Origin: Candidatus Krumholzibacteriota bacterium
GTDB taxonomy: Bacteria; Krumholzibacteriota; Krumholzibacteriia; LZORAL124-64-63
Assembly: GCA_039714075.1 (NCBI GenBank)
Contig: JBDLKA010000025.1
Location: 1-36,699 of the forward strand
Reading direction: 5' to 3'
DNA: 36,699 nt
The stretch's first letter is position 1; each line of letters opens with the position of its first letter. Below the pieces are notes generated by a model, which was not told the DNA's origin, did no database searches, and saw only the letters and a program-made list of their open reading frames with translations. Positions 10,609 through 32,857 of the stretch are shown one piece after another. The translations under genes were made by a program, and so were the position numbers.

Positions 10609-12428
10609 ACGGAAACATCCTGAGACGAAATTGGCCCGTGGCGGTTTTGCTGGTCGCGGCCTTCGGCCTGGGGTTCCTTCTGCGTGGAGGTGGGGACGGC
10701 GGGGAACCGGACGACTCGAAAACAGCCCTGCCGGAAGTCGCCGCGCCCCAGCGTTGGACCTGCTCCATGCATCCCCAGATCATTCTGCCGACCAACGATC
10801 AGAAATGCCCCATCTGCTTCATGGATCTGATTCCCCTGGAGGAGGAATCGGGGGCCCACGTGGCTCCGGGCGACCTTTCGCTGAGCGAAGCGGCCGCGGC
10901 CCTGGCCGATATCGCCACCGATAAGGTGCGCCGCGAATTCGTGGCCCGGGAAATCCGTCTGGTGGGCAAGGTCAGCGCGGACGAGACCCGCACCCGCACC
11001 ATCACCGCGCGCGTGGGTGGTCGGTTGGACCGGCTTTTTGTCGACGCCACCGGGCAGACGGTCACCCGCGGGATGGAGCTGGCGGAAATCTACAGTCCGG
11101 AATTGTATTCGGCGCAAGCCGAACTCCAGACCGCGGCGGGGGCTTTGGCTGCCGCCGAGAAGGCGGGCGCGGCCACGGCCGGCGCCCGGGCCAACCTCAG
11201 GTCCGCGGCGGAAAGACTGCGGTTGTGGGGGATGGACGAACAGCAGATCCAGGCGATCATGGCCGGCGAGGGTATCAGTGATCACCTGGTGGTGCGGGCC
11301 CCCGTCGGCGGTGTGGTCGTGTCCCGGCAGGCGACCCAGGGGGACTATGTGAAAACCGGCGGCATCCTCTACACCATCGCCGACCTTTCGGGTGTCTGGG
11401 TCACCCTCGACGCCTTCGAATCGGACGTGGCCTGGCTGCGCGAGGACCAGCCCGTGGCGTTCACCGCGCGGGCCTATCCCGGCAGGGAGTTCCAGGGCGA
11501 CATTCTTTTCATAGATCCGGTCCTGGATGAACGGACACGCACGGTCGAGATCCGCGTCGCGGTGGACAACACCGCCGGCCTGCTCAAGCCGGGCATGCTG
11601 GTCACCGGCCGGGTGTCGGTCACGGTCGATGCCTACGGCAATCCGGTGGTCGATCCCGAAACCGCCGTTCCGCCCCTGGTCATTCCCGCGTCGGCGCCGC
11701 TGTTGACGGGTGACCGGGCTGTCGTCTATGTGCGGCTGCCCGGCAACGGGGATCCCGTCTTCACCGGGCGCAACGTGGTGCTCGGGCCCCGGGCGGGCGA
11801 CGTCTACTTCGTGGTCTCGGGTCTGTCCGAGGGCGAGTCGGTGGTGACGCGGGGCAATTTCAAGATCGACAGTGCCCTGCAGATCCAGGCCCGGACCAGC
11901 ATGATGAATCCCGCCGGGCATGAAGCCCTGAACGGTTTGGCCCCCCTGGAACCCGGTCCTTGCTTCGGCCAGGGCCTCAAAAAGGTTCTTCAGGCCTACT
12001 ATCCCCTGCAGACGGCCCTGGCGGCCGACGATGACGCCGCCGCCAGGGCGGCCGCGGGTGAGGTCAAAGCCGCGGCAGACAACCTGGACTGCGATACTGC
12101 GGATCTTCCCCGATCCGGCGCCGAACTCTGGTCACGGCTGGAGACCGCCCTGCGGGACGCGGCGGGCAGGACCGCGTCCGCGGACAACATCGCCCGGCGC
12201 CGCCAAGCCTTCGAATCCCTCTCGGACAATCTCTGGAACGCCCTGGCCCGGTTCGGCGCCGGTTCGGGAGAAACCGTGCGCCGGTTCCACTGTCCCATGG
12301 CTTTCGACAACGACGGAGCATTCTGGATTCAGCAGGAGAAAACCACCGCCAACCCCTACTACGGGGCCATGATGCTGCGGTGCGGTTCGCAGGAGGAAGT
12401 CCTGGGCGGCGAAGGCGGGGGCTCCTGA
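10605..12428 (+). CDS. cusB: Heavy-metal RND periplasmic adaptor with N-terminal metal-binding domain and C-terminal DUF3347
   Basis: WTCSMHPQI...CPICFMDL; IYSPEL; ADLSGVW; LKPGM; C-terminal HCPMA...NPYYGAMMLRCG. Confidence 0.88.
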   Translation: MNGNILRRNWPVAVLLVAAFGLGFLLRGGGDGGEPDDSKTALPEVAAPQRWTCSMHPQIILPTNDQKCPICFMDLIPLEEESGAHVAPGDLSLSEAAAALADIATDKVRREFVAREIRLVGKVSADETRTRTITARVGGRLDRLFVDATGQTVTRGMELAEIYSPELYSAQAELQTAAGALAAAEKAGAATAGARANLRSAAERLRLWGMDEQQIQAIMAGEGISDHLVVRAPVGGVVVSRQATQGDYVKTGGILYTIADLSGVWVTLDAFESDVAWLREDQPVAFTARAYPGREFQGDILFIDPVLDERTRTVEIRVAVDNTAGLLKPGMLVTGRVSVTVDAYGNPVVDPETAVPPLVIPASAPLLTGDRAVVYVRLPGNGDPVFTGRNVVLGPRAGDVYFVVSGLSEGESVVTRGNFKIDSALQIQARTSMMNPAGHEALNGLAPLEPGPCFGQGLKKVLQAYYPLQTALAADDDAAARAAAGEVKAAADNLDCDTADLPRSGAELWSRLETALRDAAGRTASADNIARRRQAFESLSDNLWNALARFGAGSGETVRRFHCPMAFDNDGAFWIQQEKTTANPYYGAMMLRCGSQEEVLGGEGGGS

Positions 12429-12429
12429 C

Positions 12430-15400
12430 ATGTCGGATACCCGCAACCCGACCACCGGCTTGGTGGGTAGACTGGTCGGTTTCTGTCTGGACAACAAGCT
12501 GATCGTATTGCTGCTGGTCGTTTTGTTTCTCGGCTGGGGCGTCGTTGTGTCCCCCTTCGACTGGGAAGCCGGACCGCTGCCCAGGGATCCGGTGCCGGTG
12601 GATGCCATTCCCGACCTCGGGGAGAACCAGCAGATCGTCTTCACCGAATGGGCGGGCCGTTCGCCCCAGGACGTCGAGGACCAGATCACCTATCCCCTGA
12701 CCGTGGCGCTGCTCGGGCTGCCCCAGGTCCGGACCGTGCGCAGTTATTCCTACTTCGGCTTCTCGACCATCTACATCATTTTCGAGGAAAAGGCCGACTT
12801 CTACGATTCGCGCTCGCGCATTCTGGAGAAACTGGGGAGCCTGCCGGGCGGAACCCTTCCCCAGGGAGTCAGCCCCGCGCTGGGACCCGACGCCACGGCC
12901 CTGGGACAGGTCTTCTGGTACACCCTCGAAGGCCGCGACCGGCAGGGGCGGGCCACCGGCGGCTGGGACCTGGCCGAATTGCGCACCATCCAGGATTTCT
13001 ACGTGCGGGACGCCCTGCTGGCGGCCGGGGGCGTGGCCGAAGTGGCTTCGGTGGGCGGTTTCCAGAAGGAATACCAGGTCGAAGTCGATCCGGACGCCCT
13101 GCGCCTGTACGAAGTCGGCCTGGCCCAGGTCACGCGGGCGGTGGCCGAATCGAATCGTGACGTGGGCGCGCGGTCCCTGGAAATCAACCGGGTGGAGTAT
13201 GTGGTTCGCGGCGTGGGGACCATCGAGGACGTCACCGATCTCGAGATGAGCGTCATCAAGACGGTGGACAACGTGCCGGTCCTGCTGCGGGACGTGGCCA
13301 ACGTCACAGTTGGTCCCGCCCTGCGGCGCGGTGCCCTGGACAAGGAAGGATCCGAGGCCGTCGGCGGCGTGGTGGTGGTGCGCTACGGAGAAAATCCGCT
13401 GGCGGTGATCAACCGGGTGAAGGAAAAGATCGCCGAAATCTCGCCGGGGCTTCCGCGCAAGACCCTTCCCGGAGGGACCGAATCCCAGGTGACCGTCGTA
13501 CCTTTCTATGACCGCACCGGTCTGATCCACGAAACCCTGGGCACGTTGAGCGAAGCCCTCGGCCTGGAAATCCTCATCACGGTCATCGTCGTCATCGTCA
13601 TGGTGCGCAACCTGCGCGGCGGTCTGTTGGTGGCCGGCCTGCTGCCCATGGCGGTGCTGATGGTCTTCGTGGCCATGAAGGTTTTCGGGGTCGAGGCGAA
13701 CATCGTTGCGCTATCGGGAATCGCCATCGCCATCGGGACGATCGTCGACATGGGCGTGATCCTGGTGGAGAACATCCTCGCCCGCCACGAAAGGGCTTTG
13801 AAGAACCGGGAGTCCGGTGAAGAGGCGCCCTCTCTGCGCGACAACATTCACTCCGCGGCCAGTGAAGTGGGGGGCGCGGTCGTGACGGCCGTGACCACGA
13901 CGATCCTCAGCTTCCTGCCCGTTTTCACCCTGGTGGCGGCCGAAGGCAAACTCTTCCGGCCCCTGGCTTTCACGAAGACCTTCGCTCTATTCGCATCGGT
14001 CCTGATCGCTTTGGTGGTGATCCCTCCGGTGGCCCACCTGCTGTTGAAAATCCGTGTGGGCAACGTGTCCGCGCCCGCTCTCCGGCCGGTTCCCTGGTGG
14101 CGCCGGAAGTACCTGCGGAACATCATCCTGGCCGTGGCCGCGGGCGTCGTCCTGGCGGGACGGTGGCTACCCCTGGGTGCGGAGCGGAGCCTGGTCGTGA
14201 ACGCCCTGTTCGTCCTGATCGCCACCGGAGGTGTCCTGGGATTGTTTCTGGGCTTCGCCCGGATCTACCCGCGGCTGCTGGCCTGGTGCCTGGACCACCG
14301 GCGGGTCTTTCTGGTCCTCCCGGCCCTGTTGATCCTCTGGGGCAGTCTGGCGTGGTTGGGATTCGATCGCGTTTTTGCTTTCCTGCCTGGCGCCGGCACG
14401 GAACCGGACGGATCCGCCTGGGCGAAAATATGGTCGGGGCCCCGGCACGAATTTCCCGGGTTGGGCAAGGAGTTCATGCCTGATCTGGATGAAGGATCGT
14501 TCCTGTACATGCCGACGACCATGCCCCACGCCTCGATCGGCGAGGCCCGAGACGTCCTTTCCAAACTGGACATGGCCATCGCCACGATACCCGAAGTGGA
14601 CCAGGTGGTCGGCAAGCTGGGGAGGGCGCGCTCGGCCCTCGACCCGGCGCCCATTTCCATGGTCGAAACGGTGATCAACTACAAATCCGAGTACCGGCTG
14701 AACGAAAAGGGCCGGCGCCAACGCTTCCGGTTCGACCGGGACGCGGGGGTCTTCCTGAAGGACGAGCGGGGTGAGCTGATTCCCGACCGGCGCGGCCGTT
14801 TCTACCGGCAATGGCGGGACGAGATCCGCAGCGCCGACGATATCTGGGGCGAGATCGTGCGGGCCGCCAAGCTGCCTGGCACCACTTCGGCGCCCAAGCT
14901 GCAGCCCATCGGCGCGCGCCTGGTGATGCTGCAGAGCGGCATGCGGGCCCCGATGGGGGTGAAGGTCAAAGGGCCCAGCCTGGAGGCCATCGAAGCGGCG
15001 GCCATGGACATCGAACGGCACCTCAAGGACGTGCCCGAGGTGGAGGCGACCACGGTCATCGCCGACCGGGTGGTGGGCAAACCCTATCTCGAATTGAATA
15101 TCGACCGGCACGCCATCGCCCGGCATGGGCTGACCGTAGACGATGTCCAAAGGGTGATTCAGACAGCCATCGGCGGCGTCACCGCCACCACCAGCATCGA
15201 GGGCCGGGAGAGGTTCGCCGTCCAGGTGCGTTACGCCCGCGAGCGCCGCGACGATCTGGAAGAGATCCGGCGCATCCTGGTGACCGGTCCCGACGGCGTC
15301 CACGTGCCCCTGGGCGACCTGGTGGACATCGCATACGTGCGCGGGCCGATGACCATCAAGAGCGAGGACACCTTTCTTGTCGGGTACGTCATCTTCGACC

Positions 15401-16134
15401 GCAAACCGGGCCGGGCCGAGGTGGACGTGGTGCAGGCGGCCCGCAACCATCTGAACATGTTGACCGCGAGCGGAGCCCTGTCCCTGGCGCCGGGCGTGAG
15501 CTATTCGTTCGCCGGCAGCTTCGAAAACCAGGTCCGGTCGGAAAAGACCCTCGCGGTGGTGCTGCCGGTCGCTTTGCTGCTCATCTTCCTGGTCCTGTAC
15601 CTGCAGTTTCGCTCCGTGCTGACCACCGCGATGGTGTTCGCGGGCGTGTTCGTGGCCTGGGCCGGCGGGTTCGTGATGGTCTGGCTCTACGGCCAGCCGT
15701 GGTTTTTGGACTTCTCGTTCCTGGGGGCTTCCCTGCGGGATCTGTTCCACATCCAGCCGGTGAACCTGAGCGTGGCGGTGTGGGTGGGTTTCCTGGCCCT
15801 GTTCGGAATCGCCACGGACGACGGCGTGCTGATGGCCACCTATATGGATCTGACCTTCGCCCGGAAGCGCCCGGCCACCCGGGCGGACATCAGGCGGGCC
15901 ACCGTGGCGGCCGCCACCCGCAGGGTCCGTCCCGCCCTGATGACCTCGGCCACCACCATCCTGGCCCTGATGCCCGTGCTGACTTTGACCGGGCGCGGTG
16001 CCGACATCATGATTCCCATGGCGATTCCCTCGGTGGGCGGCATGCTCATCGCGCTGCTTACCCTGTTCACGGTTCCGGTGTTATATTCGCTGCGCGAAGA
16101 AAGGCGACACACCCAACACGCGGAGCAGGAATGA
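12430..16134 (+). CDS. cusA: CusA-type heavy-metal efflux RND permease (Cu+/Ag+)
   Basis: DAIPDLGENQ; GRSPQDVEDQITYPL; LGPDATALG; FRPLAFTKT. The Met triad equivalents LYMP (14509), ISMVET (14659) and LVMLQSG (14926) are present. Confidence 0.93.
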   Translation: MSDTRNPTTGLVGRLVGFCLDNKLIVLLLVVLFLGWGVVVSPFDWEAGPLPRDPVPVDAIPDLGENQQIVFTEWAGRSPQDVEDQITYPLTVALLGLPQVRTVRSYSYFGFSTIYIIFEEKADFYDSRSRILEKLGSLPGGTLPQGVSPALGPDATALGQVFWYTLEGRDRQGRATGGWDLAELRTIQDFYVRDALLAAGGVAEVASVGGFQKEYQVEVDPDALRLYEVGLAQVTRAVAESNRDVGARSLEINRVEYVVRGVGTIEDVTDLEMSVIKTVDNVPVLLRDVANVTVGPALRRGALDKEGSEAVGGVVVVRYGENPLAVINRVKEKIAEISPGLPRKTLPGGTESQVTVVPFYDRTGLIHETLGTLSEALGLEILITVIVVIVMVRNLRGGLLVAGLLPMAVLMVFVAMKVFGVEANIVALSGIAIAIGTIVDMGVILVENILARHERALKNRESGEEAPSLRDNIHSAASEVGGAVVTAVTTTILSFLPVFTLVAAEGKLFRPLAFTKTFALFASVLIALVVIPPVAHLLLKIRVGNVSAPALRPVPWWRRKYLRNIILAVAAGVVLAGRWLPLGAERSLVVNALFVLIATGGVLGLFLGFARIYPRLLAWCLDHRRVFLVLPALLILWGSLAWLGFDRVFAFLPGAGTEPDGSAWAKIWSGPRHEFPGLGKEFMPDLDEGSFLYMPTTMPHASIGEARDVLSKLDMAIATIPEVDQVVGKLGRARSALDPAPISMVETVINYKSEYRLNEKGRRQRFRFDRDAGVFLKDERGELIPDRRGRFYRQWRDEIRSADDIWGEIVRAAKLPGTTSAPKLQPIGARLVMLQSGMRAPMGVKVKGPSLEAIEAAAMDIERHLKDVPEVEATTVIADRVVGKPYLELNIDRHAIARHGLTVDDVQRVIQTAIGGVTATTSIEGRERFAVQVRYARERRDDLEEIRRILVTGPDGVHVPLGDLVDIAYVRGPMTIKSEDTFLVGYVIFDRKPGRAEVDVVQAARNHLNMLTASGALSLAPGVSYSFAGSFENQVRSEKTLAVVLPVALLLIFLVLYLQFRSVLTTAMVFAGVFVAWAGGFVMVWLYGQPWFLDFSFLGASLRDLFHIQPVNLSVAVWVGFLALFGIATDDGVLMATYMDLTFARKRPATRADIRRATVAAATRRVRPALMTSATTILALMPVLTLTGRGADIMIPMAIPSVGGMLIALLTLFTVPVLYSLREERRHTQHAEQE

Positions 16135-16883: not shown

Positions 16884-17828
16884 ATCGTAGGGGTGCACCG
16901 GCTCCTCCGGCCAGGGTTGCAGCAACCGGAAGTCGTCACCGAACTGTCCCAGGAATTCCAGGCTCAGAAACTTGGCCAGGGTGTGCAGGGGCAGCGTGAT
17001 CACGGTGCCGATGTAGGGGATGGCCATCAGGATCAAACCGATGCAGCAGGTCAGCAGACCACCGGCCAGATACAGGATGCCGCCGACCACCACGATGCCG
17101 AAATAGAACAGGCCGAACAGGACAAAACTTCCGGGGTGCTCCTTGAACAGGGGCAGGAACCGCCGCCAGGCTTCGGTGGCGGAAATCCGGTGGCGGTACA
17201 TGATGGGCACCACGAACTGGGTCAGGAAAAATTCAACGAACACCAGAGTGGTGATGAGGACGAACATGGCGGTCCCCGCCAGGATGATCAAGGGAACCGT
17301 GGCGACCGGGGGAGTGTCGAGAGCCGCCAGGGGAACGAGCAGCATCAGGCCGCCGACAAACAGGGATCCGATGACCACGAATACAATGATCGAATAGACG
17401 ACCTGCCAGAGAAACAGACTGTCGCCCTGGCTTTGGAATTCCGTCCAGGGGGCTTTGACCTCGGTCCGGGTGTGGACCAGGTTGTCCAGGAACATGAACC
17501 TTCCCCGGCTGCTGATCCACAGCACGAGCAGTCCGATCGCAATAACCCCCAGCATAATCATGCCGGCCAGCAGGAGCGCCCAGGGGTGGCTGAAGACATC
17601 CCCCAGAAAATCAAGGCCTCCGCCGTACCAATCGCGGACCTGGGATTTGTTCAAGTCCTCGGAGATCCGTAATTGTTCGGAGGCGCTTCCTGAGGACCCC
17701 CCGGCCAGATCGGCCAGCCACGCGGTGAAGCCCAGCACGAACCACTTGCCCAGGTCGAAGGGTTGAAAAAGGAAGGCTTTCATGCGGTGCCAGGCATGGT
17801 CCAGGGGTTTGGAATACGAGATCTGCAT
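16791..17828 (-). CDS. Polytopic membrane protein (tentatively DUF7544-like)
   Basis: About six hydrophobic segments; AWHRMKAFLFQPFDLGKW; FVVPIMY; TCC; acidic Pro/Gly-rich tail overlapping xth. Confidence 0.75.
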   Translation of the reverse strand: MQISYSKPLDHAWHRMKAFLFQPFDLGKWFVLGFTAWLADLAGGSSGSASEQLRISEDLNKSQVRDWYGGGLDFLGDVFSHPWALLLAGMIMLGVIAIGLLVLWISSRGRFMFLDNLVHTRTEVKAPWTEFQSQGDSLFLWQVVYSIIVFVVIGSLFVGGLMLLVPLAALDTPPVATVPLIILAGTAMFVLITTLVFVEFFLTQFVVPIMYRHRISATEAWRRFLPLFKEHPGSFVLFGLFYFGIVVVGGILYLAGGLLTCCIGLILMAIPYIGTVITLPLHTLAKFLSLEFLGQFGDDFRLLQPWPEEPVHPYDSNEIQGDGTMVGPQDPGEDPGGGQPGPENF

Positions 17829-18033
17829 GGGGTCACCGGTCCGCGATTTTTCGGGTCCTGGGGGAAAATTCCCGAAGTTCCGTCACCGTACACCGGACGG
17901 AACCGGAATATTCTCGCAAACTTATGGCATAAGGTAAACAGCCCAGAGTATTTCTTCCCAATCAGGTAGATGTATTTGAAAAAACATACGCAACTCGTTG
18001 TGGTATCAGGGATTTTGTCGCAACAAAAATATT

Positions 18034-18061
18034 TTGACACCATTAATAAATTACCTACCAT
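18034..18061 (+). promoter_or_regulatory. Sigma70-type promoter of the porin-flavinylation operon
   Basis: TTGACA-N16-TACCAT within an AT-rich patch, about 60 nt before the porin ATG. Confidence 0.6.
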
Positions 18062-18119
18062 TCGGGTGGGATTGGTGCGGCGTCCAGCCGAAAACCCACT
18101 TACCGGAGGTCCCGGGACC

Positions 18120-19307
18120 ATGCAGACAACAGTTGCCTTCCTTCGCCATGTCGGTTTGTTGACTTTCCTTTTCGCGGCCATTTGCGGGCCGGCCACTGCA
18201 CTGGGTCAGGAGGCCGAAGGGAACCGACCCGAACAGCCGGGAGGGATCAACGACAAGCCCTACCTGACCACGATCGGACAGGGAGCCGTTCTCGGCGGCT
18301 ACATGGACATGGAATTCGAATGGGACGAGAACAACAACACCTTCGACCAGCACCGGTTCGTTCCCTTCATCACGGGCCACGTTTCGGAGCGGGTCACGGT
18401 GTCGGCCGAAATCGAATTCGAACACGGCGGCAACGTGGACGGTGACGGGGAAATCAAGCTGGAATACGCGGTCATGGATTTCGCTTTTTCCGAGGGGCTC
18501 AATTTCCGGGGCGGGGTCATCCTCAGTCCGCTGGGGTCCTTCAACCTTCTCCACGACAGTCCCCTCAACGACCTGACCAGCCGTCCGGTGGTCAGCCGCC
18601 AGATCATCCCGTCGACCCTCAGCGAAGCGGGGATGGGCCTGTTCGGCACCCTGTACCCGGGTGAGGAAGCGGTGCTCAGCTACCAGGCCTTCCTGGTCAA
18701 CGGGTTCGACGGGGGAATCATCCAGGAAGTCGAAGATGACGGAGGCAACGTGATCGACGGCCGGTTGCGGATCCGGGGAGGCCGGGGCAGCCAGAAGAAG
18801 GACAACAACAACGACAAGGCCATCGTCGCCCGGGCGGGGTTCAGCCCCGTCCTGGGGTCCAGCGTGGGGCTTTCCGTCCACAGCGGCAAATACGATGACG
18901 CCGGCAACCATCGGGTCACCATCGGGGCCCTGGACGCCAAGGTGACCTTCGGTTCCATCGAATTCCTGGGGGAGTATGCCCTGGCCGCGGCGGACATCGA
19001 CTACGAAAAGTATCCCACCGCCGCGGAAAGCCAGTCCGGTCTGTATGCCCAGGCCAATTATCACCTGCTGCACGATGTGTTCCTGAACGGTTCGGTGGTG
19101 ACCCTGGTGGCCCGGGGTGACCGGGTCGATTTCGATACGGATCACGATGGTGACACCGAGCAGGGTTTCACCCTGGGCGCCAACTTCCGTCCCACCGAAG
19201 AGACGGTCTTCAAATTCGACTACAACTGGACCTGGGTTACGCCCCTGGATGGTGAAAGAGGAGACGCCGAGAACCGGTTCTTCTTCTCCTTCGCCACCTA
19301 TTTCTAG
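18120..19307 (+). CDS. Outer-membrane porin-like beta-barrel (OprO/P-like superfamily)
   Basis: GGAGGT RBS; signal peptide; GGYMD...HRFV...EIEFEHG...EYA; C-terminal FSFATYF ending in Phe. Confidence 0.8.
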   Translation: MQTTVAFLRHVGLLTFLFAAICGPATALGQEAEGNRPEQPGGINDKPYLTTIGQGAVLGGYMDMEFEWDENNNTFDQHRFVPFITGHVSERVTVSAEIEFEHGGNVDGDGEIKLEYAVMDFAFSEGLNFRGGVILSPLGSFNLLHDSPLNDLTSRPVVSRQIIPSTLSEAGMGLFGTLYPGEEAVLSYQAFLVNGFDGGIIQEVEDDGGNVIDGRLRIRGGRGSQKKDNNNDKAIVARAGFSPVLGSSVGLSVHSGKYDDAGNHRVTIGALDAKVTFGSIEFLGEYALAAADIDYEKYPTAAESQSGLYAQANYHLLHDVFLNGSVVTLVARGDRVDFDTDHDGDTEQGFTLGANFRPTEETVFKFDYNWTWVTPLDGERGDAENRFFFSFATYF

Positions 19308-19316
19308 GGAGGAAAG

Positions 19317-19922
19317 GTGTTGCGCCGACTCGAACTGATGCTGGTCGCCGCGGTCCTGGCTCTTGCCGGGGCCGCGGGGCCGGTCCGGGGTCAGGACCAG
19401 CTGACCGAGAGTCCCGACGGTCCCGAAGCGGTCAAGGTCTACTTCACGCCGGACGAGGCGCTGGCCCGGGTCTTCGCCGAAGCGGATTCCCTGTGGTCCG
19501 AGGAATGGATCCCGACCCCGGGACAGAGGTCGGAGCTGGAAACCCGCCTGGGCTGGGCCGTCACCGGGGAAACGTTTGTCGTCCACCGTGGGATCAGGGA
19601 CGGACAGGACCAGGGCTACGCGATGATCATGGAGGAACAGGGGCGCTTCAAGCCCATCACCTTCATGGTCAAGGTGAAGGCCGACCTGCGGGTGGAAATG
19701 GTCCTGGTCATGGTCTACCGGGAATCGCGGGGTGACGGGGTGAAGCGCCAACGCTTCCTGAAACAGTTCCGCGACAAGGACGAATCGGATCACCTGAGGT
19801 TGAACCGCGACATCGTGGCCGTCAGCGGAGCGACCATGTCCAGCCGCGCCCTGGCCATTGGTGTCAAAAAGGCCCTGGCCATCCTGACCTTGAAGCATGC
19901 CCCACGGAAAGACGGCCCATGA
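19317..19922 (+). CDS. Secreted FMN-binding domain protein (ApbE flavinylation substrate)
   Basis: Signal peptide; PITFMV; YRESRG; FLKQF; AVSGATMSS flavinylation motif with the Thr codon at 19833-19835. Confidence 0.88.
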   Translation: MLRRLELMLVAAVLALAGAAGPVRGQDQLTESPDGPEAVKVYFTPDEALARVFAEADSLWSEEWIPTPGQRSELETRLGWAVTGETFVVHRGIRDGQDQGYAMIMEEQGRFKPITFMVKVKADLRVEMVLVMVYRESRGDGVKRQRFLKQFRDKDESDHLRLNRDIVAVSGATMSSRALAIGVKKALAILTLKHAPRKDGP

Positions 19923-20608
19923 CCGAAAAGCAGATGAAATCCGGCCTGCGCAGCAGCCACCGTTGGGTGGGGGCCCTGGCGGCCGTCCTCCTGTTTCTGG
20001 CGGGCGCCAGCGGTTTCCTGCTGCAGCATCCCTCCTGGCTGGGACCGGCGGCCAACCCGACTTTCGCGGTGGCCGCCGACCCGGTGGTTCCCGGGCGTCT
20101 GCTTCGGGGTACCCACTGGGGTGTCGAGGAATCGACCGATCAAGGCCTTACCTGGCGGGAAATCGATATGCTGGCCCCGCCGACGGATGTGGTCCGGGTC
20201 ATTTTTGCTCCTGATGATCCGCGGTTGGTCCACGCCCTGGGCCGGGACGCGCTGGTTCGCTCCCGGGACGGGGGGCGCATCTGGCAGGAGGTTCCGATCA
20301 ATGCGACCGGGCTTCAACCGGACACCCGTTTTCTCGACCTGGGGATCGCGCCCGGTGGGGTTCTGTATCTTTTGACGGACGACGGTCTGTTGGGCAGTTC
20401 CGACGGCGGCCTTTCCTGGGACCGGCGAGGTACAGCGACCGGGAAGGCCTCCCGGGATTGGCGAGGCCTCATCCACGATCTTCATACCGGACATATCCTG
20501 GGCGCGACCGGCCGCCGGATCGCCGAAACCGGGGCGCTGGCCCTGCTGTTCATCACCGTGACCGGCCTGGTTCTCCTGCGGCGGAACGGAAAGGTGTTCC
20601 GCCGATGA
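19919..20608 (+). CDS. PepSY-associated TM-helix protein (putative b-type cytochrome) with three Asp-box/BNR repeats
   Basis: HRWVG-TM-SG..L.H; DLHTG-TM-TG; Asp boxes STDQGLTW, SRDGGRIW and SSDGGLSW. Confidence 0.8.
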   Translation: MTEKQMKSGLRSSHRWVGALAAVLLFLAGASGFLLQHPSWLGPAANPTFAVAADPVVPGRLLRGTHWGVEESTDQGLTWREIDMLAPPTDVVRVIFAPDDPRLVHALGRDALVRSRDGGRIWQEVPINATGLQPDTRFLDLGIAPGGVLYLLTDDGLLGSSDGGLSWDRRGTATGKASRDWRGLIHDLHTGHILGATGRRIAETGALALLFITVTGLVLLRRNGKVFRR

Positions 20609-21660
20609 TCCGCCTCCTGGCATTGACCTTGTTGGTGTGGTCGGGAGCGGTGGCTTCAGCGGAAGAGCAGGTGTCCCGGGAGCAGGTGCGGTATGTCATG
20701 GGCACCACCGCCACGGTCCGGGCCTGGGCTCCGGATGCGGAGTCGGCCGCCCTGGCCGTCGAGGCGGCCTACGCGGCTTTTGCCCGGACGGACTCCCTGA
20801 TGAGCACCTGGCGCGACGACAGTGTCCTCAGCAGGTTGAATCGTTCCGTGGCCGGCCACTGGGTGGAGGTGGGCCCGGAAGTCTGCGGGGTGCTTGACGA
20901 GGCCAAGAGGGTGGCCGAAGCCAGTAAGGGGGCTTTCGATCCGACCGTGCTGCCTCTCGTCCGGCTGTGGGGCTTTCGGGACGGCGACGTCGCGCTGCCT
21001 GATGCGCAGGTCCTGGACAATGTCCTTCATTCCGTCGGCCATGACCTTTTGGAATTGGACCTGCCTGGGGGTCGCGCGCGCCTGCTTACCCAGGATGCGG
21101 CGGTCGATCTGGGCGGCATCGCCAAGGGGCATGCCCTGGAACAGGCCGCGCGGGCGATGCAAAATGCCGGGGCCGGCAGCGGGGTTGTCGATCTGGGCGG
21201 CAATATCCTGGTTTTTGGTCCGGCGACCGCAAGGCAGGTGGGTATCGTGGATCCTCGCCGGGAAGACCGGCTTCTGGCCGCGGTTCTCTTGACCGACGCG
21301 GCGGTGGCCACATCTGGACAATATGAAAGATTTTTGACCATCGAGGGCCGTCGCTACGGACACATTCTGGACCCGCGCAGCGGTTGGCCGGTGCCCTCGG
21401 GGATAAGCGTTACCGTGGTCGCCGGGCGGGCGATCCTGGCCGACGCCCTGGCCACCGCGGCCGTGGTTCTGGGACCGGACGATGGCCTGGCCCTGCTGGA
21501 GAGGATTTCGGGAGTGGAAGGAGTTCTGGCGGTTCCCGATGGCCGGGGCGGTTTGGGACTCAAAACAACGTCCGGATACGTCCCGGTGCCGGAGTCCCCC
21601 GGGACGGCCCACGGTTTGCAATCTTGTTCAAAGGAGGGGAAAGCACAGCAAACACATTGA
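20605..21660 (+). CDS. apbE: FAD:protein FMN transferase
   Basis: MGT; GAFDPTV.PL..LWGF; DLGGIAKG; ATSGQYER; HILDPRSG; ADALATA. Start ATG 20605 overlaps the upstream TGA. Confidence 0.95.
   Translation: MIRLLALTLLVWSGAVASAEEQVSREQVRYVMGTTATVRAWAPDAESAALAVEAAYAAFARTDSLMSTWRDDSVLSRLNRSVAGHWVEVGPEVCGVLDEAKRVAEASKGAFDPTVLPLVRLWGFRDGDVALPDAQVLDNVLHSVGHDLLELDLPGGRARLLTQDAAVDLGGIAKGHALEQAARAMQNAGAGSGVVDLGGNILVFGPATARQVGIVDPRREDRLLAAVLLTDAAVATSGQYERFLTIEGRRYGHILDPRSGWPVPSGISVTVVAGRAILADALATAAVVLGPDDGLALLERISGVEGVLAVPDGRGGLGLKTTSGYVPVPESPGTAHGLQSCSKEGKAQQTH
21605..21620 (+). promoter_or_regulatory. Candidate sigma54 promoter for the LysM-hydrolase gene, inside the 3' tail of apbE
   Basis: CGGCCCACGGTTTGCA has GG(21606-07)-N10-GC(21618-19) with a canonical TTGCA -12 element. 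Confidence 0.4.
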
Positions 21661-21672
21661 GTTGAGCAACAT

Positions 21673-23109
21673 TTGGCGGTTCCCACATTGCAAATTGCAA
21701 CACGCATCCTGGTTTGGGTCATCTTTATTTCCCTTTTCAGTCTTCAGCCGAACATACCGGGGCTTTTTGCGGGGTCCGGGCAGGCCCGGGCTGAACAGGC
21801 CGACGCGAACTCGCTTTCCTACACCGTTCAGTCAGGCGACACCCTGCTGAAAATCTGTTCCCGCCACCGCCACCTGACCAATCACTATTCCCTGACGGAC
21901 ATGTTGACGGCGATCCGCCGCGCCAATGGTCTGGAATCGAATTTCCTGCGCATCGGACAGAAGCTTCAGATTCCCGTGATTGAAAAAGAGAATTTCAGCC
22001 GGGTGACCCACCGGATGGGTGCCGGAGCGGAAATGCGGGGCATCTACCTGACTGGGCCGGCCTGCGGGGTCTCGACGGTTCTGGCCCGGGTGGACCGGTT
22101 CATCGAGGCGGGCGGCAACGCGGTCGTGTTCGACGCCAAGGATATCGACGGCGGAGTTTCCTACTTCAGCCGCCACGGTCTGGCGTCCTGGGGCGCGGGG
22201 CGTTCGGGGCCGGTCATTTCCTCCCTGGACGACATGATGAGCCGGCTGGACCAGCGCGGCCTTTACGTGGTGGCCCGGATCGCCCTCTTCCTGGACGGCG
22301 AATTGGGCAGGCGGCGGCCGGATCTTGCGCTACACGATTCCACCGGCGCGGTCTGGTCCGAAAGAGGCTGTGTCTGGGTGGATCCCGCCAACCGGGAAGT
22401 CGTCCAGTACAACCTGGCCCTGGCGGGGGAACTGGCCCGGGCCGGGGTGGACGAAATCCAGTTCGATTACGTGCGCTTCCCCACCAACGGCTGGATGGGG
22501 GACGGGCAGGGCGACCTCGAGGCTGTGGCGGTCCGCCGCCGCACGGTCATCGCGGATTTCCTGTCCGCGGCGCGGGATACCCTGGACGGCTACGGGGTGA
22601 AGATCTCGGCGGACCTCTATGGAATCATGGCCTGGGACCAGATTGAAGACCTGGCCCTGACCGGGCAGCATGTGCCGACCATTGCCTCGTTGGTGGACGT
22701 CATCTGCCCCATGATCTACCCCTCCCATTTCGGGCCGGGTTTCGAAGGCCGCAAAAGGCCGGGTGACGATCCGGTGTATTTCATTTCCGAAGGGACCCGC
22801 CGCTTCCTCGATCTGGCCGCCGGTCAGGCCGAGGTGCGCCCCTGGCTTCAGGCCTTTCCCTACCGCGTGACCCGTTTCGACGGGGAATACATCACCGCCC
22901 AGGTCCAGGCCTCCAGGACCGCGGGGGGAGACGGGTGGAGTCTGTGGAATCCTTCCTGCAACTACGAAGTGGCCCTGAATGTCATGCCCGGCATATGCGG
23001 GGACCGGGTCGTCAGCCAGGCGGCCACGGAGACGGGGACCTACGCGGTCGGTTCGGCAGGCGCCGCGGGCCCGACCCGGCCCGGGTTCAGCGACACTCCC
23101 GGACAATAA
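21673..23109 (+). CDS. LysM domain plus putative glycoside hydrolase (DUF4015 / GHL-type TIM barrel)
   Basis: YTVQSGDTL...IRRANGL...IGQKLQIP; RGIYLT; WVDP; DEIQFDYVRFP; PMIYPSHF; RPWLQAF; LWNP. Start codon uncertain (TTG with weak RBS). Confidence 0.82.
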   Translation: MAVPTLQIATRILVWVIFISLFSLQPNIPGLFAGSGQARAEQADANSLSYTVQSGDTLLKICSRHRHLTNHYSLTDMLTAIRRANGLESNFLRIGQKLQIPVIEKENFSRVTHRMGAGAEMRGIYLTGPACGVSTVLARVDRFIEAGGNAVVFDAKDIDGGVSYFSRHGLASWGAGRSGPVISSLDDMMSRLDQRGLYVVARIALFLDGELGRRRPDLALHDSTGAVWSERGCVWVDPANREVVQYNLALAGELARAGVDEIQFDYVRFPTNGWMGDGQGDLEAVAVRRRTVIADFLSAARDTLDGYGVKISADLYGIMAWDQIEDLALTGQHVPTIASLVDVICPMIYPSHFGPGFEGRKRPGDDPVYFISEGTRRFLDLAAGQAEVRPWLQAFPYRVTRFDGEYITAQVQASRTAGGDGWSLWNPSCNYEVALNVMPGICGDRVVSQAATETGTYAVGSAGAAGPTRPGFSDTPGQ

Positions 23110-23207
23110 TTTCACCAGGTTAATAAAATCCCATGGCATCCCTCAGGGCGGCGGTATAAATTCGGCGGATAACCGGAACCGTGAATCCGCCGCCAAAGGA
23201 TGCCGCC

Positions 23208-24416
23208 ATGTCTTTCAGCAAACTAGCCAATGCCATCGGGGCTTCGGTGACCCTGAAACTCAACGCCGAAGCTGCCAGAATGCGGGCCGCGGGGGATCCG
23301 GTCATCCACCTGGGGGGCGGTGAGCCCAAGAGCCTGGCTCCCGAAGCGGCCGTTGAGGCGGGCATCTCCATGCTGAAAACCGGGGAGATCCGCTACACCC
23401 CGGCCGCCGGTACCCCGGCCATGCGCGACGCCATCATCGCCTACACCGAAAAATTCTACGGGCGCAAGGTTGAACGGACCAACGTCATGGCCTCGGCCGG
23501 CGCCAAGCAGGCGATCATGGTGGCCCTGATGGCCCTGGTCGATCCGGGCGATGAAGTGGTGTTTCCGGTGCCCTACTGGGTGAGCTATCCCGACATGACC
23601 CGGCTGGCCGGCGGGATCCCCGTGCCGGTGCGGGCCGCCGACGGTTCCTTCCAACCCTCTTTGGACGAGATGACCGCCGCGATCACTTCCCGGACCAGGG
23701 CGGTGCTGCTGAACAGCCCCAACAATCCTTCGGGCAAGGTATTCGACGGCGAATGGCTGCGGGGGCTGGTGGCTTTTTGCGAGGAACGGGACATCTTCGT
23801 GATGATGGACGACATCTACCACCGGCTGGTTTTCGACGGGCGCAGCGCGGTCCACTGTTACGATTGTACCGATCGTTCGGTGGACGACGCGAAACTGGTC
23901 GTCCTGAACGGCGTGTCCAAGCAGTACGCCATGACCGGGTTCCGTATCGGGTGGGCGGTCGGGCCGGCTGACCTGATCAAGGTGATGGCCAACATCCAGT
24001 CCCATCAATCGGGAGGGCCCTGCAGCCTTTCCCAGACCGCGGCCGTCGCGGCGATCGCGGGCGCCCAGGGTTCGGTCGGCAAGCTGCGCGAGACCCTGGA
24101 AGCCAGCCGCAACGAGTTGATGACCCTGCTGGGAGAGATCCCGGGTCTCAAGGCCGACGTGCCCGAAGGAACCTTCTACTGTTTCGCCGATTTCCGGGCC
24201 TTCGACGAGGACTCGTCCCGTCTGGCAGCGCGTCTGCTGGAAAAAATCCAGGTCGTCACCGTGCCGGGGATCGAATTCGGGATGGAGGGGTTCCTGCGCC
24301 TGAGTTACTGCGGCCCCATCGAGGATGTCCGCGAAGGTGCTCGCCGGATCAAGTGGCTGCTCGACGAGAACGGTGCGCCTGAACTGCGGGTCGGTGATAA
24401 GGTCTTTACCCGCTGA
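23208..24416 (+). CDS. PLP-dependent class I aminotransferase (aspartate aminotransferase family)
   Basis: GEP; AGAKQA; PYWVSY; NSPNNPSG; DDIY; PLP-lysine motif NGVSKQYAMTGFRIG; FLRLSY. Confidence 0.93.
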   Translation: MSFSKLANAIGASVTLKLNAEAARMRAAGDPVIHLGGGEPKSLAPEAAVEAGISMLKTGEIRYTPAAGTPAMRDAIIAYTEKFYGRKVERTNVMASAGAKQAIMVALMALVDPGDEVVFPVPYWVSYPDMTRLAGGIPVPVRAADGSFQPSLDEMTAAITSRTRAVLLNSPNNPSGKVFDGEWLRGLVAFCEERDIFVMMDDIYHRLVFDGRSAVHCYDCTDRSVDDAKLVVLNGVSKQYAMTGFRIGWAVGPADLIKVMANIQSHQSGGPCSLSQTAAVAAIAGAQGSVGKLRETLEASRNELMTLLGEIPGLKADVPEGTFYCFADFRAFDEDSSRLAARLLEKIQVVTVPGIEFGMEGFLRLSYCGPIEDVREGARRIKWLLDENGAPELRVGDKVFTR

Positions 24417-25325: not shown

Positions 25326-28300
25326 GTGAAAGTCATATCAGTCTGCCTCTGTCTCGCCGTCGGCATCACTGGTCTTTCCTTGGCCGCCGAACCGCGCCTG
25401 GAATCAATCCGTCACGAGGGCGGCTCCCATGCCGATGGCGCCAAGGCTGTTGTCGACACCCTGCTGTTGATGGGAGCCCACGGTGAAGGCGCACCCCACA
25501 TCGGCACCTTCGAGTCGCCAACGGGATCGCCGGACTGGAACGGATGGACCAGCATCGACATTACGCAGGAAACCGAATCCTATTGGCATGTCGACACGTT
25601 CAAGGCCGTCACGGGCACTTATTCGGTATGGTGCGGGTCGATGGATGTCTTATCCTGCTGGCACGATGATCCGGACGGCGGCTATGGTGCCAACTACAAC
25701 GAGCGGCTCGAATGGCGCGGCACCGTCGCTGATCCTGCTTTGCCCTGTACCGTATCCATCTCCACCAATTACCACGTCAGCACCATGCCTGGTTATGACT
25801 TCTTTTTTGTTTCGGTGGAGTTGCCTGACAATGGCCTGGCCAATTTGCTGGCCATAGACGGCCACTACGATGACCTGTCGTTTGCCGGCAACTTCGTTTA
25901 TCAGCCCGAAGATTACGTGGGACCAAACGCCGACGAGGTAGTTGTCCTGTTCCGGGGGACTTCGGACGGCGGTTGGGACGGCGCGGACTGCACCTGGCCC
26001 AACGACGGTATAGCCCAGGTGGACGACGTGGTCATCACCCTGAGCAACGGCACCGGCTACAGTCACGATTTCGAGAACGGCACGCTGGGCGATTTCCAGA
26101 TCGCGTATCCGCCGGGCGTCGGGGATTATGCGCAACTGTGGTCCGGCTTGCCGGATCTCGATCCCTGCGTGACCAATGATTCGCCCCAGGTGGCCTTTAT
26201 CGACGACGGCCTGGTGGTACCGGGCACGGGTGGCTCGTTTTGTATCGACTGGTGTTACGGTCCGAATGGTTATGTCGTCAATTCCACTGGCGGGTTGTCA
26301 AGTTACCCCACACCCTGGCGCGATCGTAACCTGCACAACGCCGTCGAATCACCGCCCATGGCCTGGGACAACCCAGACCATGACGGCGCCCTGCTGTCGT
26401 ACTCGGTCTACCGTCACGAGAATCTGGACCCCGAATCAGCCGGTATTTTCTATACCTGGGCCGTGCGCTCGGTTTCGACCGGTGACCCGGCCGATCTGGC
26501 TGGAGCCGAGTGGCAGGACCATGGATTCGTATATTACGGGGGACCCAACTACCAGCGGGAAACCAAAGACCTGCGTGATCTGCTCGTGCCGGGCAGAACC
26601 CACGTGCAGGTTCAGCTGGGTGCCTACGAACTGGGTTGGGTCTGGGGTTGGGATGGCAACAACACCACGCCGGCGCCCTATTTGGACAATGTGCGCCTGC
26701 AGACTTTTCCGGCGGAAGGCCCCGGCCTGTCGGCGACCACCGAAGGGTTGGCCACGGACGGTTTTCCCGCCAACGGCGGGCTTGACCTGGTGAATCTCGG
26801 TGCCAACAGCGTGCCGTTCGACGCGTCCGCTCACGTTGATGTGCCCCTGGCGCCGCAGGACTCTTTACTGATTACCTGTGTTCCGGTCGGAACGGGCGCC
26901 GTTTTGGCCGGTCCGCCTCGGCTGCACTACAATCTCAGGCGGAATACCCTGTTCGATGCTTATCGCACCAGCGGGTTGCCGGATGTCGGTTCGGTGCCCT
27001 GCGCGCCGACGGGGAACGATTCCACGACCTGGGCCGCCGATCTGCCGGACCAGGATTTCCTGTTTCCCGGCGACAGGCTGCACTACTACTTCGCGGCCGA
27101 CCAGGACATCGGAGGACAGATCGAATCATCGGTCATGCCCGCCGACACGACAGGCTTCTCCGATTTCTCGGATTTCCCCGTGATCAACGGCGGCTACGAT
27201 CCGGCCTTTGCCGTGCGTGGGCTGCCGACCGTCAGCGAGGTTGTCACCGCACCCGGCACCCACGAAACGCCCAGGGTCCTGTTCTGGCACGATTCGGGCA
27301 CGAATGATGACTGGGCGGTCTGGACTTCCGCATTCCAGATGACCGGTCTCAGTGGCGGCGGTGTTGATTTTTTCCATACCCAGGGCGCCTGGTCGGGGCA
27401 TTGGAACGGCCTTGGTAGCCGTGCCACCATTGGCCAACTTTCCAACTACGACGTCATTCTGTATTCCAGTGGTGAGATGCCGGCCAATACGATTGCACAT
27501 GCATACGATGGGATTGCCCGGCCGGGCGTCAACGACATCGACGTGCTTGATGGTTGGCTGAAACTGGGCGACAGGAATCTGCTGGCCTTCGGCAACGATC
27601 TGGCCAGTGACCTTCATTCAGGCACCGCCGCCCAGTCCGATTTCCTGTCCACGTGGTTCGATGTCTCCGCCGCGGTGCGCGATGTGAAGCCGCTGATCGA
27701 TGGACAGAATGCGCCTCTGGTGCTGCCCGAGACCGGCAACCCCGTATTTTCCACGGCAGGCAGCTGGTTGGCTTACGGCAAGGGTTGCAGCTCTTCGCCG
27801 TTTTTCGAAGGCTATGTGCAATACGTTGCCGACCGCTTCGACGCCCTTCTGCCGGGTGTTGACGCCGTCCGGCTGGCCAATTGGACGACCCCGGACCGGA
27901 TTCCGGGATATGTCGAGACGGCGGCGGTGCTCACGACCGATGCGGTCTACAACGCCAGGGTCATCCTGGTCCCCGTGGATTTCAAACTCATCCTTACCGA
28001 CCCGAACGAAACGACGGAGACCGGTTCATCCTATCCGGCACGGGTCCGCCTTCTGAACGATGTGCTGACCTACTTCGGTCACGGCGGTGATCCGTTGGAT
28101 GTGGTTTCGGTACCCGGTGCGTCGGGATTTTCCCTGACACACTATCCCAACCCTTTCAATCCCTCGACGACCATCAGCTACACCGTGGCGCAGCCCGGCC
28201 GATTGTCCATCAAGGTGTACGATTTGCGGGGCCAGCTGGTGCGTAATCTCCACGATGGGCACGCCGCCACTTCCGGGAGCATGGTTTGGGACGGCCGGAG

Positions 28301-28394
28301 GGATGACGGTGAAGCGGCCTCATCCGGCATCTATTTCTACGAAGCGCGCATGAGGGGCGAGGTCCGCGTGGGGAAAATGACGCTGATCAAATGA
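25326..28394 (+). CDS. Large secreted hypothetical protein (jelly-roll-like N-terminal modules, alpha/beta domain) with FlgD/T9SS-like CTD
   Basis: GAGGGG RBS and GTG start; signal peptide; FES..G...W, GYDFF, SDGGW...VDDV and YLDNV jelly-roll-like motifs; YDVILYSSG; PNPFNPST...MTLIK tail. Confidence 0.8.
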   Translation: MKVISVCLCLAVGITGLSLAAEPRLESIRHEGGSHADGAKAVVDTLLLMGAHGEGAPHIGTFESPTGSPDWNGWTSIDITQETESYWHVDTFKAVTGTYSVWCGSMDVLSCWHDDPDGGYGANYNERLEWRGTVADPALPCTVSISTNYHVSTMPGYDFFFVSVELPDNGLANLLAIDGHYDDLSFAGNFVYQPEDYVGPNADEVVVLFRGTSDGGWDGADCTWPNDGIAQVDDVVITLSNGTGYSHDFENGTLGDFQIAYPPGVGDYAQLWSGLPDLDPCVTNDSPQVAFIDDGLVVPGTGGSFCIDWCYGPNGYVVNSTGGLSSYPTPWRDRNLHNAVESPPMAWDNPDHDGALLSYSVYRHENLDPESAGIFYTWAVRSVSTGDPADLAGAEWQDHGFVYYGGPNYQRETKDLRDLLVPGRTHVQVQLGAYELGWVWGWDGNNTTPAPYLDNVRLQTFPAEGPGLSATTEGLATDGFPANGGLDLVNLGANSVPFDASAHVDVPLAPQDSLLITCVPVGTGAVLAGPPRLHYNLRRNTLFDAYRTSGLPDVGSVPCAPTGNDSTTWAADLPDQDFLFPGDRLHYYFAADQDIGGQIESSVMPADTTGFSDFSDFPVINGGYDPAFAVRGLPTVSEVVTAPGTHETPRVLFWHDSGTNDDWAVWTSAFQMTGLSGGGVDFFHTQGAWSGHWNGLGSRATIGQLSNYDVILYSSGEMPANTIAHAYDGIARPGVNDIDVLDGWLKLGDRNLLAFGNDLASDLHSGTAAQSDFLSTWFDVSAAVRDVKPLIDGQNAPLVLPETGNPVFSTAGSWLAYGKGCSSSPFFEGYVQYVADRFDALLPGVDAVRLANWTTPDRIPGYVETAAVLTTDAVYNARVILVPVDFKLILTDPNETTETGSSYPARVRLLNDVLTYFGHGGDPLDVVSVPGASGFSLTHYPNPFNPSTTISYTVAQPGRLSIKVYDLRGQLVRNLHDGHAATSGSMVWDGRRDDGEAASSGIYFYEARMRGEVRVGKMTLIK

Positions 28395-28412: not shown

Positions 28413-29072
28413 TCAGTTGCGGCTGTGCCTGATGATTTTTCCTTCCACCGTGTAGATCGTGTCCTCGGCTATATTGGTGGCCAGGTCGGCGACCCTCTCG
28501 ATGCTCTTGGCCGCCAGGAGCCAGGAGATCACCGCTTCGGCGCGGGCGGGGTCGGCCGCCAGTTTTTCCTTCAGGATCCCGATGAAATTCCGGTAGTCCA
28601 GATCGACTTCGTCGTCGGCCGCCAGAACGATCCTGGCGCCGGCCGTGTCCATGTTCATCAGGGATTCCAGACTCTGGCGCAGCATGGCCTGCGCCTTTTC
28701 ACCCAGGGACTGCAGGCGTTCCCCGAATATGGGCGGGCATTGGTCACTGTCCAGCCGCGGCTGGATGCCGGCGATGTTCACAGCCAGGTCGCCGATCCGC
28801 TCGAGGTCGTTGTTCATCTTCAGGGCGGCGACCAGGAAACGCAGATCCACGGCCACGGGCTGGTGCAGGGCCAGGACCTTCAGGCATTCCTCCTCGACCT
28901 CCACTTCCAGTTCATCGATTTCGGCATCGTTCCGGCGCACCTTTTCCGCAAGTTCGGAATCGCTGTCCCGCACCGCCCTGATGGCCAGTTTCAGGTTTTC
29001 CTCCACCACGGAACTGAGGTGGAAAAGCTGCTTTTTCAGCCGGTCGAGTTCAGTCTGCAGATGTATCTTCAT
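28413..29072 (-). CDS. phoU: Phosphate signalling protein PhoU
   Basis: Duplicated D.EID.L / DDEVD; QPVAVDLR; DLERIGDLAVNIA; ERVADLATNIAE. Confidence 0.96.
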   Translation of the reverse strand: MKIHLQTELDRLKKQLFHLSSVVEENLKLAIRAVRDSDSELAEKVRRNDAEIDELEVEVEEECLKVLALHQPVAVDLRFLVAALKMNNDLERIGDLAVNIAGIQPRLDSDQCPPIFGERLQSLGEKAQAMLRQSLESLMNMDTAGARIVLAADDEVDLDYRNFIGILKEKLAADPARAEAVISWLLAAKSIERVADLATNIAEDTIYTVEGKIIRHSRN

Positions 29073-31538: not shown

Positions 31539-31685
31539 GATTTCCAGCCCTTTCTCCGCTGTGGAAAACTCATGGAATTCTGGTTCATCGTCACAGACGG
31601 TCGGTCCCAAAGGGGGAATGCGCAAGTTAGGATATTGTAAATGAAATTTCCAGACAATGAAACCTAAATACCTTGGAAGACTTAA

Positions 31686-31724
31686 TTTACACAATCTTTA
31701 CAATTGACTGGCAGTTCCCTTACA
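31686..31724 (+). promoter_or_regulatory. Pho-box array (four hexamers at exact 11-bp period)
   Basis: TTTACA (31686), TTTACA (31697), CTGGCA (31708), CTTACA (31719). An opposite-strand TTTACA at 31636-31641 faces phoB. Confidence 0.75.
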
Positions 31725-32842: not shown

Positions 32843-32857
32843 GAATGCTGGAACGCT

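Follow-up and report, generated by a model that had tools for sequence, protein, structure and literature searches.

We analyzed a 36,699-nt stretch of DNA (hereafter the window) from a Candidatus Krumholzibacteriota bacterium (GenBank assembly GCA_039714075.1, contig JBDLKA010000025.1). It contains four adjacent genes, encoding a porin, an exported flavin mononucleotide (FMN)-binding protein, a PepSY-TM membrane protein and the FMN transferase ApbE, which are referred to as the cassette. An earlier note, made from the letters of this DNA, had read them as a self-contained redox chain reaching from the outer to the inner membrane. The host genome of the window is labeled G000 and is 92% complete. 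Related genomes and loci carry G and L labels, contigs carry C labels, and coordinates are those of the window unless a label precedes them.

A four-gene block present or absent as a whole

The open reading frames (ORFs) of the cassette are tightly packed, with a 9-bp gap after the porin gene and two ATGA overlaps behind it, and their coordinates confirm the layout described in the earlier note (Table 1). The TTGACA promoter named there is indeed present, but taken alone it stands at chance level (one found against 0.8 expected). A similar -35/-10 pair, at equal spacing from an upstream palindrome, occurs in 7 of the 19 porin promoters scanned. Searches of positions 17000-23500 against Rfam returned 0 matches. 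The note had stated that the operon lacks a TonB receptor, an iron permease and any Rnf/Nqr subunit, and a Pfam scan of 30 window ORFs brought up none of these.

Table 1. Positions of the cassette genes, their junctions, the predicted control elements and the block that varies between genomes.
Feature	Position	Strand	Description
Palindrome TTTTGT-N4-ACAAAA, predicted operator	18013-18028		centre ~47 bp 5' of predicted transcription start
Predicted sigma-70 promoter TTGACA-16-TACCAT	18034-18061	+	motif scan
Porin ORF	18120-19307	+	ATG start; GGAGG at 18105-18109; 395 aa
Intergenic gap, porin/FMN-binding gene	19308-19316		9 bp
FMN-binding protein ORF	19317-19922	+	GTG start; 201 aa
Overlap, FMN gene/PepSY-TM gene	19919-19922		ATGA
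PepSY-TM protein ORF	19919-20608	+	229 aa
Overlap, PepSY-TM gene/apbE	20605-20608		ATGA
ApbE ORF	20605-21660	+	351 aa
Block absent at the empty site	17945-21603 (approximate)		between DUF7544 and LysM-DUF4015 genes; five same-genus genomes

The boundaries of the cassette are revealed by an empty site. In all five same-genus genomes without a porin match, the DUF7544 and LysM-DUF4015 genes are adjacent, approximately 220-350 bp apart, and DNA homology to the window ends at 17831-17942 and restarts at 21604-21647. Because of these breakpoints, the unit is delimited as the four genes plus their promoter. The same site is occupied by the block in other genera, which suggests that the five genomes have lost it. 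The LysM-DUF4015 gene, considered as a fifth member, was rejected since it remains at the empty site. Meanwhile, the last codons of apbE (21604-21660) lie in DNA that the empty site retains as the upstream region of the LysM gene. As the end of apbE runs into this retained DNA, the tail of ApbE probably derives from the flank.

Several other gene groups lie in the window. A CusCBA-type heavy-metal efflux operon (9241-16134; OEP, HlyD/CusB with HMBD and DUF3347, and an AcrB-family protein) is located about 2 kb upstream of the cassette, with an exonuclease III-like gene after it. The ORFs at 2128-4605 and 25326-28394 encode two large secreted proteins whose C-terminal domains are of the FlgD-Ig or secretion-tail type. 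The region 28413-36660 holds PhoU, a sensor kinase and response regulator, a phosphate-binding protein and a permease with a WD40-like propeller insert.

To describe conservation, we use the best 80 of at least 555 confirmed porin loci. An FMN_bind gene follows the porin in 65 of these 80 loci, and in 63 of the 75 with at least 800 bp of downstream sequence. A membrane gene is present in 63 of the 80 and belongs to one of three kinds, no two of which are found together: a PepSY protein (18 loci), a His-containing protein of 150-190 residues without Pfam match (31), or a cytochrome b561/DUF4405-like protein (14). All four parts, with any membrane kind, occur in 35. From the side of the membrane protein, the PepSY-propeller protein was detected in 25 of the 208 genomes of the phylum, and 20 loci were fetched from 26 places. 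These genomes are kin, and a few of them occur in the porin-side set too. The 20 loci contain the FMN gene in 18 cases, the porin in 16, ApbE in 12 and all four genes in 9; porin or FMN genes are missing mostly at contig ends, and genus g8 and G044 have no adjacent ApbE. The genes are conserved together, so that the refuting condition set by the earlier note fails: porin and FMN gene keep company in 65 of 80 loci, and the block is absent as a whole in 5 of 5 empty-site genomes. The conserved core is the porin with the FMN-binding protein, and it is the PepSY protein that can be exchanged.

The other occupants of the membrane slot show some variation of their own. The 150-190-residue protein is multi-helical with a conserved His motif (L042:8537-9034, L048:10470-11006, L063:2264-3219 and 28 further loci), and in Campylobacterota and Bdellovibrionota it appears as two tandem paralogues, one often without the His pair. 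The cytochrome b561/DUF4405-like partner gives weak, below-cut-off matches (L084:8625-9134, L095:9547-10047 and 12 further loci, from Geothrix/Holophagaceae, Methylocystis and Verrucomicrobia). In the Brocadiales locus L048 (8735-10504), FMN_bind and ApbE are fused in a single ORF, and L050 (7778-9073) has a similar-looking ORF cut by the contig end. The porin is paired with multicopper oxidases in the Brocadia loci L046 and L051. At L026:9423-9557 (= G014:C36:15368-15505), a 45-codon porin fragment (56% identity, residues 108-152) stands just after the PepSY gene, at the expected place of ApbE.

The proteins of the cassette

The porin gives no match in Pfam or NCBIfam and 0 by sequence in the PDB. 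Its AlphaFold2 model, built from 91 homologues, has 16 barrel strands with a mean pLDDT of 85.5, and Foldseek with this model returns OmpC, OprP, OprO and other porins at a TM-score of 0.5-0.6 and 10-15% identity, which supports the assignment of the gene as a porin. The protein begins with a hydrophobic signal-like segment and ends in Phe, and two homologues with 78-80% identity pass PF07396. The family is large, with 947 representatives at 50% identity (E up to 1e-10). In a set of 121 sequences, made of the query and 120 of 150 listed representatives with at least 340 residues, the positions conserved at 70% or more comprise 18 acidic and 10 basic residues and one His. Glu97, Glu99 and Glu101 alternate along one strand, and the conserved His145 sits with Asp146 and Asp151 in a long loop after strand 5. 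Because the conserved residues are largely acidic and, judged by strand alternation, probably face the pore, we infer that the pore favors cations. In the model the 16-strand barrel fold is shared with the phosphate porins OprP and OprO, whereas OprP is known, from the title of its entry, for an arginine ladder.

The FMN-binding protein matches PF04205 (33.6 bits, cut-off 22). Its SGAT motif (S170-G-A-T173) aligns to the TGAT of RnfG (7ZC6), with Thr173 as the predicted flavinylation site. The acceptor Thr/Ser is retained in 62 of 63 aligned rows and the canonical [ST]GA[ST] in 55 of them; one gap row, a mis-called ORF, was dropped. Read by eye, the protein has an N-terminal hydrophobic segment and no lipobox Cys. 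ApbE is full length (PF02424, 260.6 bits), carries the motifs DLGGIAKG, ATSG, YGHILDP and ADALAT, and matches solved FMN transferases along its length. The presence of an exported SGAT protein beside ApbE, as first described, is supported. The sole ApbE, FMN_bind and PF03929 matches in G000 are those of this operon, and NqrB/RnfD (PF03116) was not found in this 92% complete genome. Because of this, ApbE and the FMN-binding protein look like a dedicated pair. The latter shares the PF04205 domain and the [ST]GAT site with the carriers RnfG and NqrC, but it scores far under the NCBIfam cut-off for RnfG (23.6 versus 102 bits).

The third gene encodes a protein with a PF03929 match (44.8 bits, cut-off 28.8), weak BNR and Sortilin matches, and a PF16357 score of 25.4 against a cut-off of 27. 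Two hydrophobic helices (residues 15-37 and 201-221) enclose a periplasmic part, in which three Asp-box propeller blades (approximately residues 50-172) resemble the propellers of GH74, Ycf48 and sortilin by sequence and fold. The earlier name 'mini-PepSY cytochrome' needs correction: no PepSY domain matches, and the three blades stand in its stead. All 18 diverse rows retain both His14 and His189; His37 is present in 14 of them and His186 in 12. His14 aligns with His9 of FoxB (7ABW; E 0.042), and His189 aligns with His339 (E 4e-6, using a 12-row profile). The first helix and the last His motif with its helix align to FoxB residues 7-42 and 328-377. A single-sequence search of the C-terminal helix against the PDB gave 0 matches, and FoxB surfaced with the 12-row profile. 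On these grounds the protein is a predicted heme-b protein. Because its chain holds half the helices and half a propeller, we infer that it would most simply act as a homodimer.

VciB and FoxB, characterized PepSY-TM proteins, are iron or siderophore reductases (PMC8238504; PMC13001220), and HiuB, grouped here with FoxB and VciB, belongs to the TonB-linked HiuABC system of Caulobacter (PMC13001220). FoxB has two heme sites with two His each (Huang 2024, PMC11334425 / 10.1101/2024.03.13.584918; PMC13001220). These sites lie in a single chain of 382 residues that carries PepSY domains and serves TonB-dependent siderophore uptake, whereas the cassette protein has 229 residues, two helices, two His that are invariant in the diverse set, propeller blades, and a porin and a flavoprotein as partners. 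FezC and MsrQ-like cytochromes offer a precedent for a half-size His protein with heme sites predicted to form by homodimerization (Huang 2024, PMC11334425), but the cassette protein belongs to another family.

A palindrome shared with dtxR-feoA-feoB

Comparison of orthologous promoters revealed a common palindrome, which in the window reads TTTTGTCGCAACAAAA and lies upstream of the predicted -35 element. Its strict form has two occurrences in G000, one here and the other about 80 bp 5' of a dtxR-feoA-feoB operon on contig C6 (G000:C6:31127-34193, covered by L104 and L105; site at G000:C6:31127), whose promoter carries TTTGT-N4-ACAAA. A matrix built de novo on 15 promoters taken from other genomes puts the window site 1st and the dtxR-feoAB site 4th among 4,062,049 positions of G000. 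With ten porin promoters, the same genus left out, the two sites rank 1st and 11th, and a matrix from four dtxR promoters places the two sites 5th and 11th. Other high-scoring sites in G000 lie on C71, C15 and C28 (inside long ORFs) and on C49, C205 and C223.

The association extends to other genomes. In 24 dtxR loci, from 23 of the 26 genomes searched, the porin-trained matrix finds the best site of the locus within 270 bp before dtxR in 19, and feoA and feoB follow dtxR in 17. The palindrome overlaps the predicted start in 14 of 19 dtxR promoters, matching the expectation for autorepression. Among 19 porin promoters, 7 have it at -47 to -50, the window included, 9 have it within -29 to +17, and the other 3 at different positions; L121, whose contig is cut within the porin, was dropped from the PepSY-side promoter scan. 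The window palindrome is thus the predicted operator of the DtxR/MntR-family regulator encoded before feoAB, and TTTGT-N4-ACAAA is a likely DtxR/MntR operator in this Gram-negative bacterial family. The 19-mer DtxR consensus scores low in the window (9/19); the operator came from the promoter comparison.

Fur boxes of 15-16/19 appear in 14 of 71 homologous upstream regions, each matched by at most 1 of 30 shuffles; the remaining 9 of the 80 porin loci have no usable upstream region. In three porin promoters (L020, L021 and L120) the DtxR-type palindrome lies about 70 bp from a Fur box (15/19), which suggests dual Fur/DtxR control at these loci; the window has the palindrome only. In G023 the gene order on a single strand is dtxR-feoA-feoB-porin-FMN-PepSY-apbE, and in L053 it is fur-porin-FMN-PepSY-apbE-feoB-dtxR. 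A feo, fur, dtxR, bacterioferritin, TonB receptor, imelysin or DHOR gene lies within 7 kb in 24 of the 80 porin loci, as a raw count. Imelysin and DHOR are included as genes that we take to be iron-linked.

These results modify the idea of a self-contained chain. The cassette is a bounded four-gene block, as the five empty sites show, but its predicted operator is shared with dtxR-feoA-feoB, and in relatives it is joined to feoAB, Fur or imelysin/di-heme genes. Likewise, the iron link of the proposed reductive role is supported by the shared operator and the feo and fur neighbors, but the module does not stand apart from iron import. Neither copper nor phosphate, which the earlier note had also named as conditions of interest, finds support, and no Pho-box pattern is seen near the promoter.

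Relation to known systems and proposed function

Flavinylation clusters with PepSY-like proteins have been described before. [quoted passage not shown] In the window, PF02424 and PF04205 score above cut-off, N-terminal hydrophobic segments are present and PF03929 reaches 44.8 against 28.8. Because it falls under this operational definition, the operon is, judged by its domains, a variant of the published class. The earlier note had placed it outside the classical ApbE contexts. This stands for Rnf/Nqr, of which no subunit was found in the 30 window ORFs and no PF03116 match in G000, but the operon does fit the PepSY-like clusters. Since ApbE and PepSY clusters in iron assimilation are already published as predictions (PMC8238504), no new principle is involved.

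The described clusters mostly contain DUF2271 (2833 of 3220), DUF4198 and a three-helix PepSY protein, sometimes with an NAD-binding domain, VIT1 or a TonB component, and Fur control is reported (PMC8238504). A PF03929 protein, ApbE and an exported flavinylation substrate are held in common. In contrast, the cassette has an FMN_bind substrate, a porin, a protein with two helices (not three) and a three-blade insert, and a DtxR-type operator, and neither DUF2271 nor DUF4198 gave a Pfam match among the cassette and window genes scanned. The word 'porin' occurs 0 times in the main text of Meheust 2021 (PMC8238504) and of Huang 2024 (PMC11334425). No paper on a porin-FMN-partner-ApbE cassette was found in the literature searched, which was mostly without subscription papers, and within that scope the porin-containing version appears uncharacterized, as had been supposed. 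Francisella FupA and Legionella LbtU, TonB-independent iron porins that feed FeoB, are a functional analogy in that a porin is paired with FeoB. The porin is not a member of their family (among 11 proteins scanned, a single one matched LbtU, weakly, with 16.5 bits against a cut-off of 90), and the abstracts on FupA and LbtU name neither a flavoprotein nor a cytochrome as a partner. This window contributes the empty site, a predicted operator of DtxR type in common with feoAB, and a half-propeller of three blades.

We lean, by a modest degree, towards the view that the cassette is a metal-regulated, TonB-independent iron-reduction unit that feeds a separately encoded FeoAB, its chemistry being deduced from the sequences. 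Under iron scarcity, both operators would be vacated by the DtxR-family repressor. The acidic porin would let ferric iron, or a small chelate of it, diffuse in, and Thr173 of the exported protein would receive its FMN from ApbE. The dimer of the membrane protein may form a FoxB-like di-heme four-helix bundle (His14/His14', His189/His189'), while two three-blade halves may close into a six-blade periplasmic propeller. Electrons from the membrane would reach Fe(III) by way of heme and then the flavoprotein; because no NAD-binding domain is present, the quinol pool is the probable donor. FeoB would then import the resulting Fe(II).

A number of observations weigh against such a unit. ApbE lies within 7 kb in just 42 of the 80 porin loci, all four genes with a PepSY partner occur in 6 of these 80 and in the 9 of 20 PepSY-side loci, and 56 of the 80 show none of the iron genes searched for. 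At L134 (G139:C10:112300-121500), a lone PepSY-propeller gene has DUF7544 and LysM on either side; no porin, FMN or ApbE gene was found at this site, in a record rich in frameshifts. The strict motif occurs twice against 0.69 expected, with 0-4 occurrences for other spacers, so that the raw count is not significant; its support comes from location and from conservation among related, non-independent genomes. The window site lies upstream of -35, as in 6 other porin promoters, which makes activation as possible as repression. No Fur box was found in the window (best 10/19 against the Fur consensus). The ligands of the regulator (Asp14, Glu17, His83, Cys106, Glu109 and His110) mix MntR and DtxR features, compatible with Fe or Mn, and among the solved proteins nearest to it are Mn sensors. 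Of these ligands, Cys106 is as in DtxR, and Asp14 is as in MntR, at the position of Asp8. Finally, in 52 mostly close relatives of the membrane protein, His189 is invariant and His14, His37 and His186 are each kept in at least 90%, so that other ligand schemes are possible.

Several alternatives can be considered. In the first, which we regard as unlikely, the flavoprotein and cytochrome would not reduce iron themselves but would keep a separately encoded periplasmic partner (a metal-binding protein or an enzyme) reduced, and the porin would simply admit Fe(II) or another cation for FeoB. Imelysin and di-heme proteins, cytochrome c peroxidase-like proteins or multicopper oxidases do lie downstream of the cassette in some loci, porin homologues at L096 and L097 stand beside imelysin/DHOR without an FMN gene, and ApbE substrates in the Nos and Pce systems are carriers to enzymes (PMC8238504). 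However, the cassette has no such partner conserved beside it, a tblastn search of G000 found neither imelysin nor DHOR, and the relatives VciB and FoxB reduce iron or siderophores (PMC8238504; PMC13001220).

A second alternative is manganese or mixed Mn/Fe uptake, in which the regulator would sense Mn(II) and the cassette would reduce Mn(III) chelates for a Mn-importing FeoB. The regulator is nearest to MntR-type solved proteins, with Asp14 at the position of MntR Asp8, and G000 has two Fur-family genes although no Fur box was found in the window. Some FeoB proteins carry Mn. The Fur boxes in 14 of 71 orthologous promoters, three of them (L020, L021 and L120) alongside the palindrome, and neighbors such as bacterioferritin, imelysin and TonB receptors point to iron, and make Mn uptake rather improbable.

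In the third, the direction is reversed. The operon would be switched on at metal plenty and would oxidize periplasmic Fe(II) to Fe(III) for detoxification or storage, with electrons passing to the quinone pool. The operator lies just 5' of -35 in 7 of the 19 porin promoters, the window included, and this position is typical of activators. On the other hand, the site falls within -29 to +17 of the predicted start in 9 of the 19, the cassette is co-oriented with the importer gene feoB in G023 and L053, and covalent FMN carriers are usually low-potential. A possible reversal of direction was raised by Meheust 2021 (PMC8238504); for this cassette we find it quite improbable.

The fourth, a respiratory conduit for extracellular electron transfer in which a porin and a flavoprotein replace a porin and a multiheme cytochrome, seems very improbable. 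The cassette does span both membranes, and a metagenome-assembled genome of Krumholzibacteria has been proposed to cycle iron (PMC7914226). However, there is a single flavin site and no multiheme or surface component in the block, and the ties to uptake genes and a metal repressor indicate assimilation. We give hardly any credence to the reading that the porin is a phosphate porin of OprP/OprO type in an operon that phosphate starvation would induce: OprP and OprO are among the top fold matches, homologues pass PF07396, and the region 7-14 kb downstream holds PhoU, a two-component pair and a phosphate-binding protein/permease, but the conserved porin residues are mostly acidic (unlike the arginine ladder of OprP), no Pho-box pattern stands near the promoter (7 window-wide matches against 6.47 by chance), and no pst or pho gene turned up among the porin neighbors scanned.

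Returning to iron reduction ahead of FeoAB, a broader version of this reading can be put forward tentatively, as one that we hold possible and would not yet bet on. Here, the cassette would represent a widespread TonB-independent reductive iron uptake, in which a cation-selective porin family and a fixed flavoprotein work with three interchangeable membrane donors. In this lineage, the donor would be a homodimeric half-cytochrome with a di-heme bundle and a six-blade propeller docking the flavoprotein, placed in a Gram-negative DtxR regulon with the TTTGT-N4-ACAAA operator.

With its interchangeable occupants, the membrane slot suggests two more candidate families of cytochromes, and, if the proposal is right, the compact four-gene system could be studied in E. 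coli. If the iron-reduction reading is true, a function would be assigned to a large unannotated porin family, and the outer-membrane and reductive steps before FeoB would be supplied for many uncultured bacteria of sediment, groundwater and the sea.

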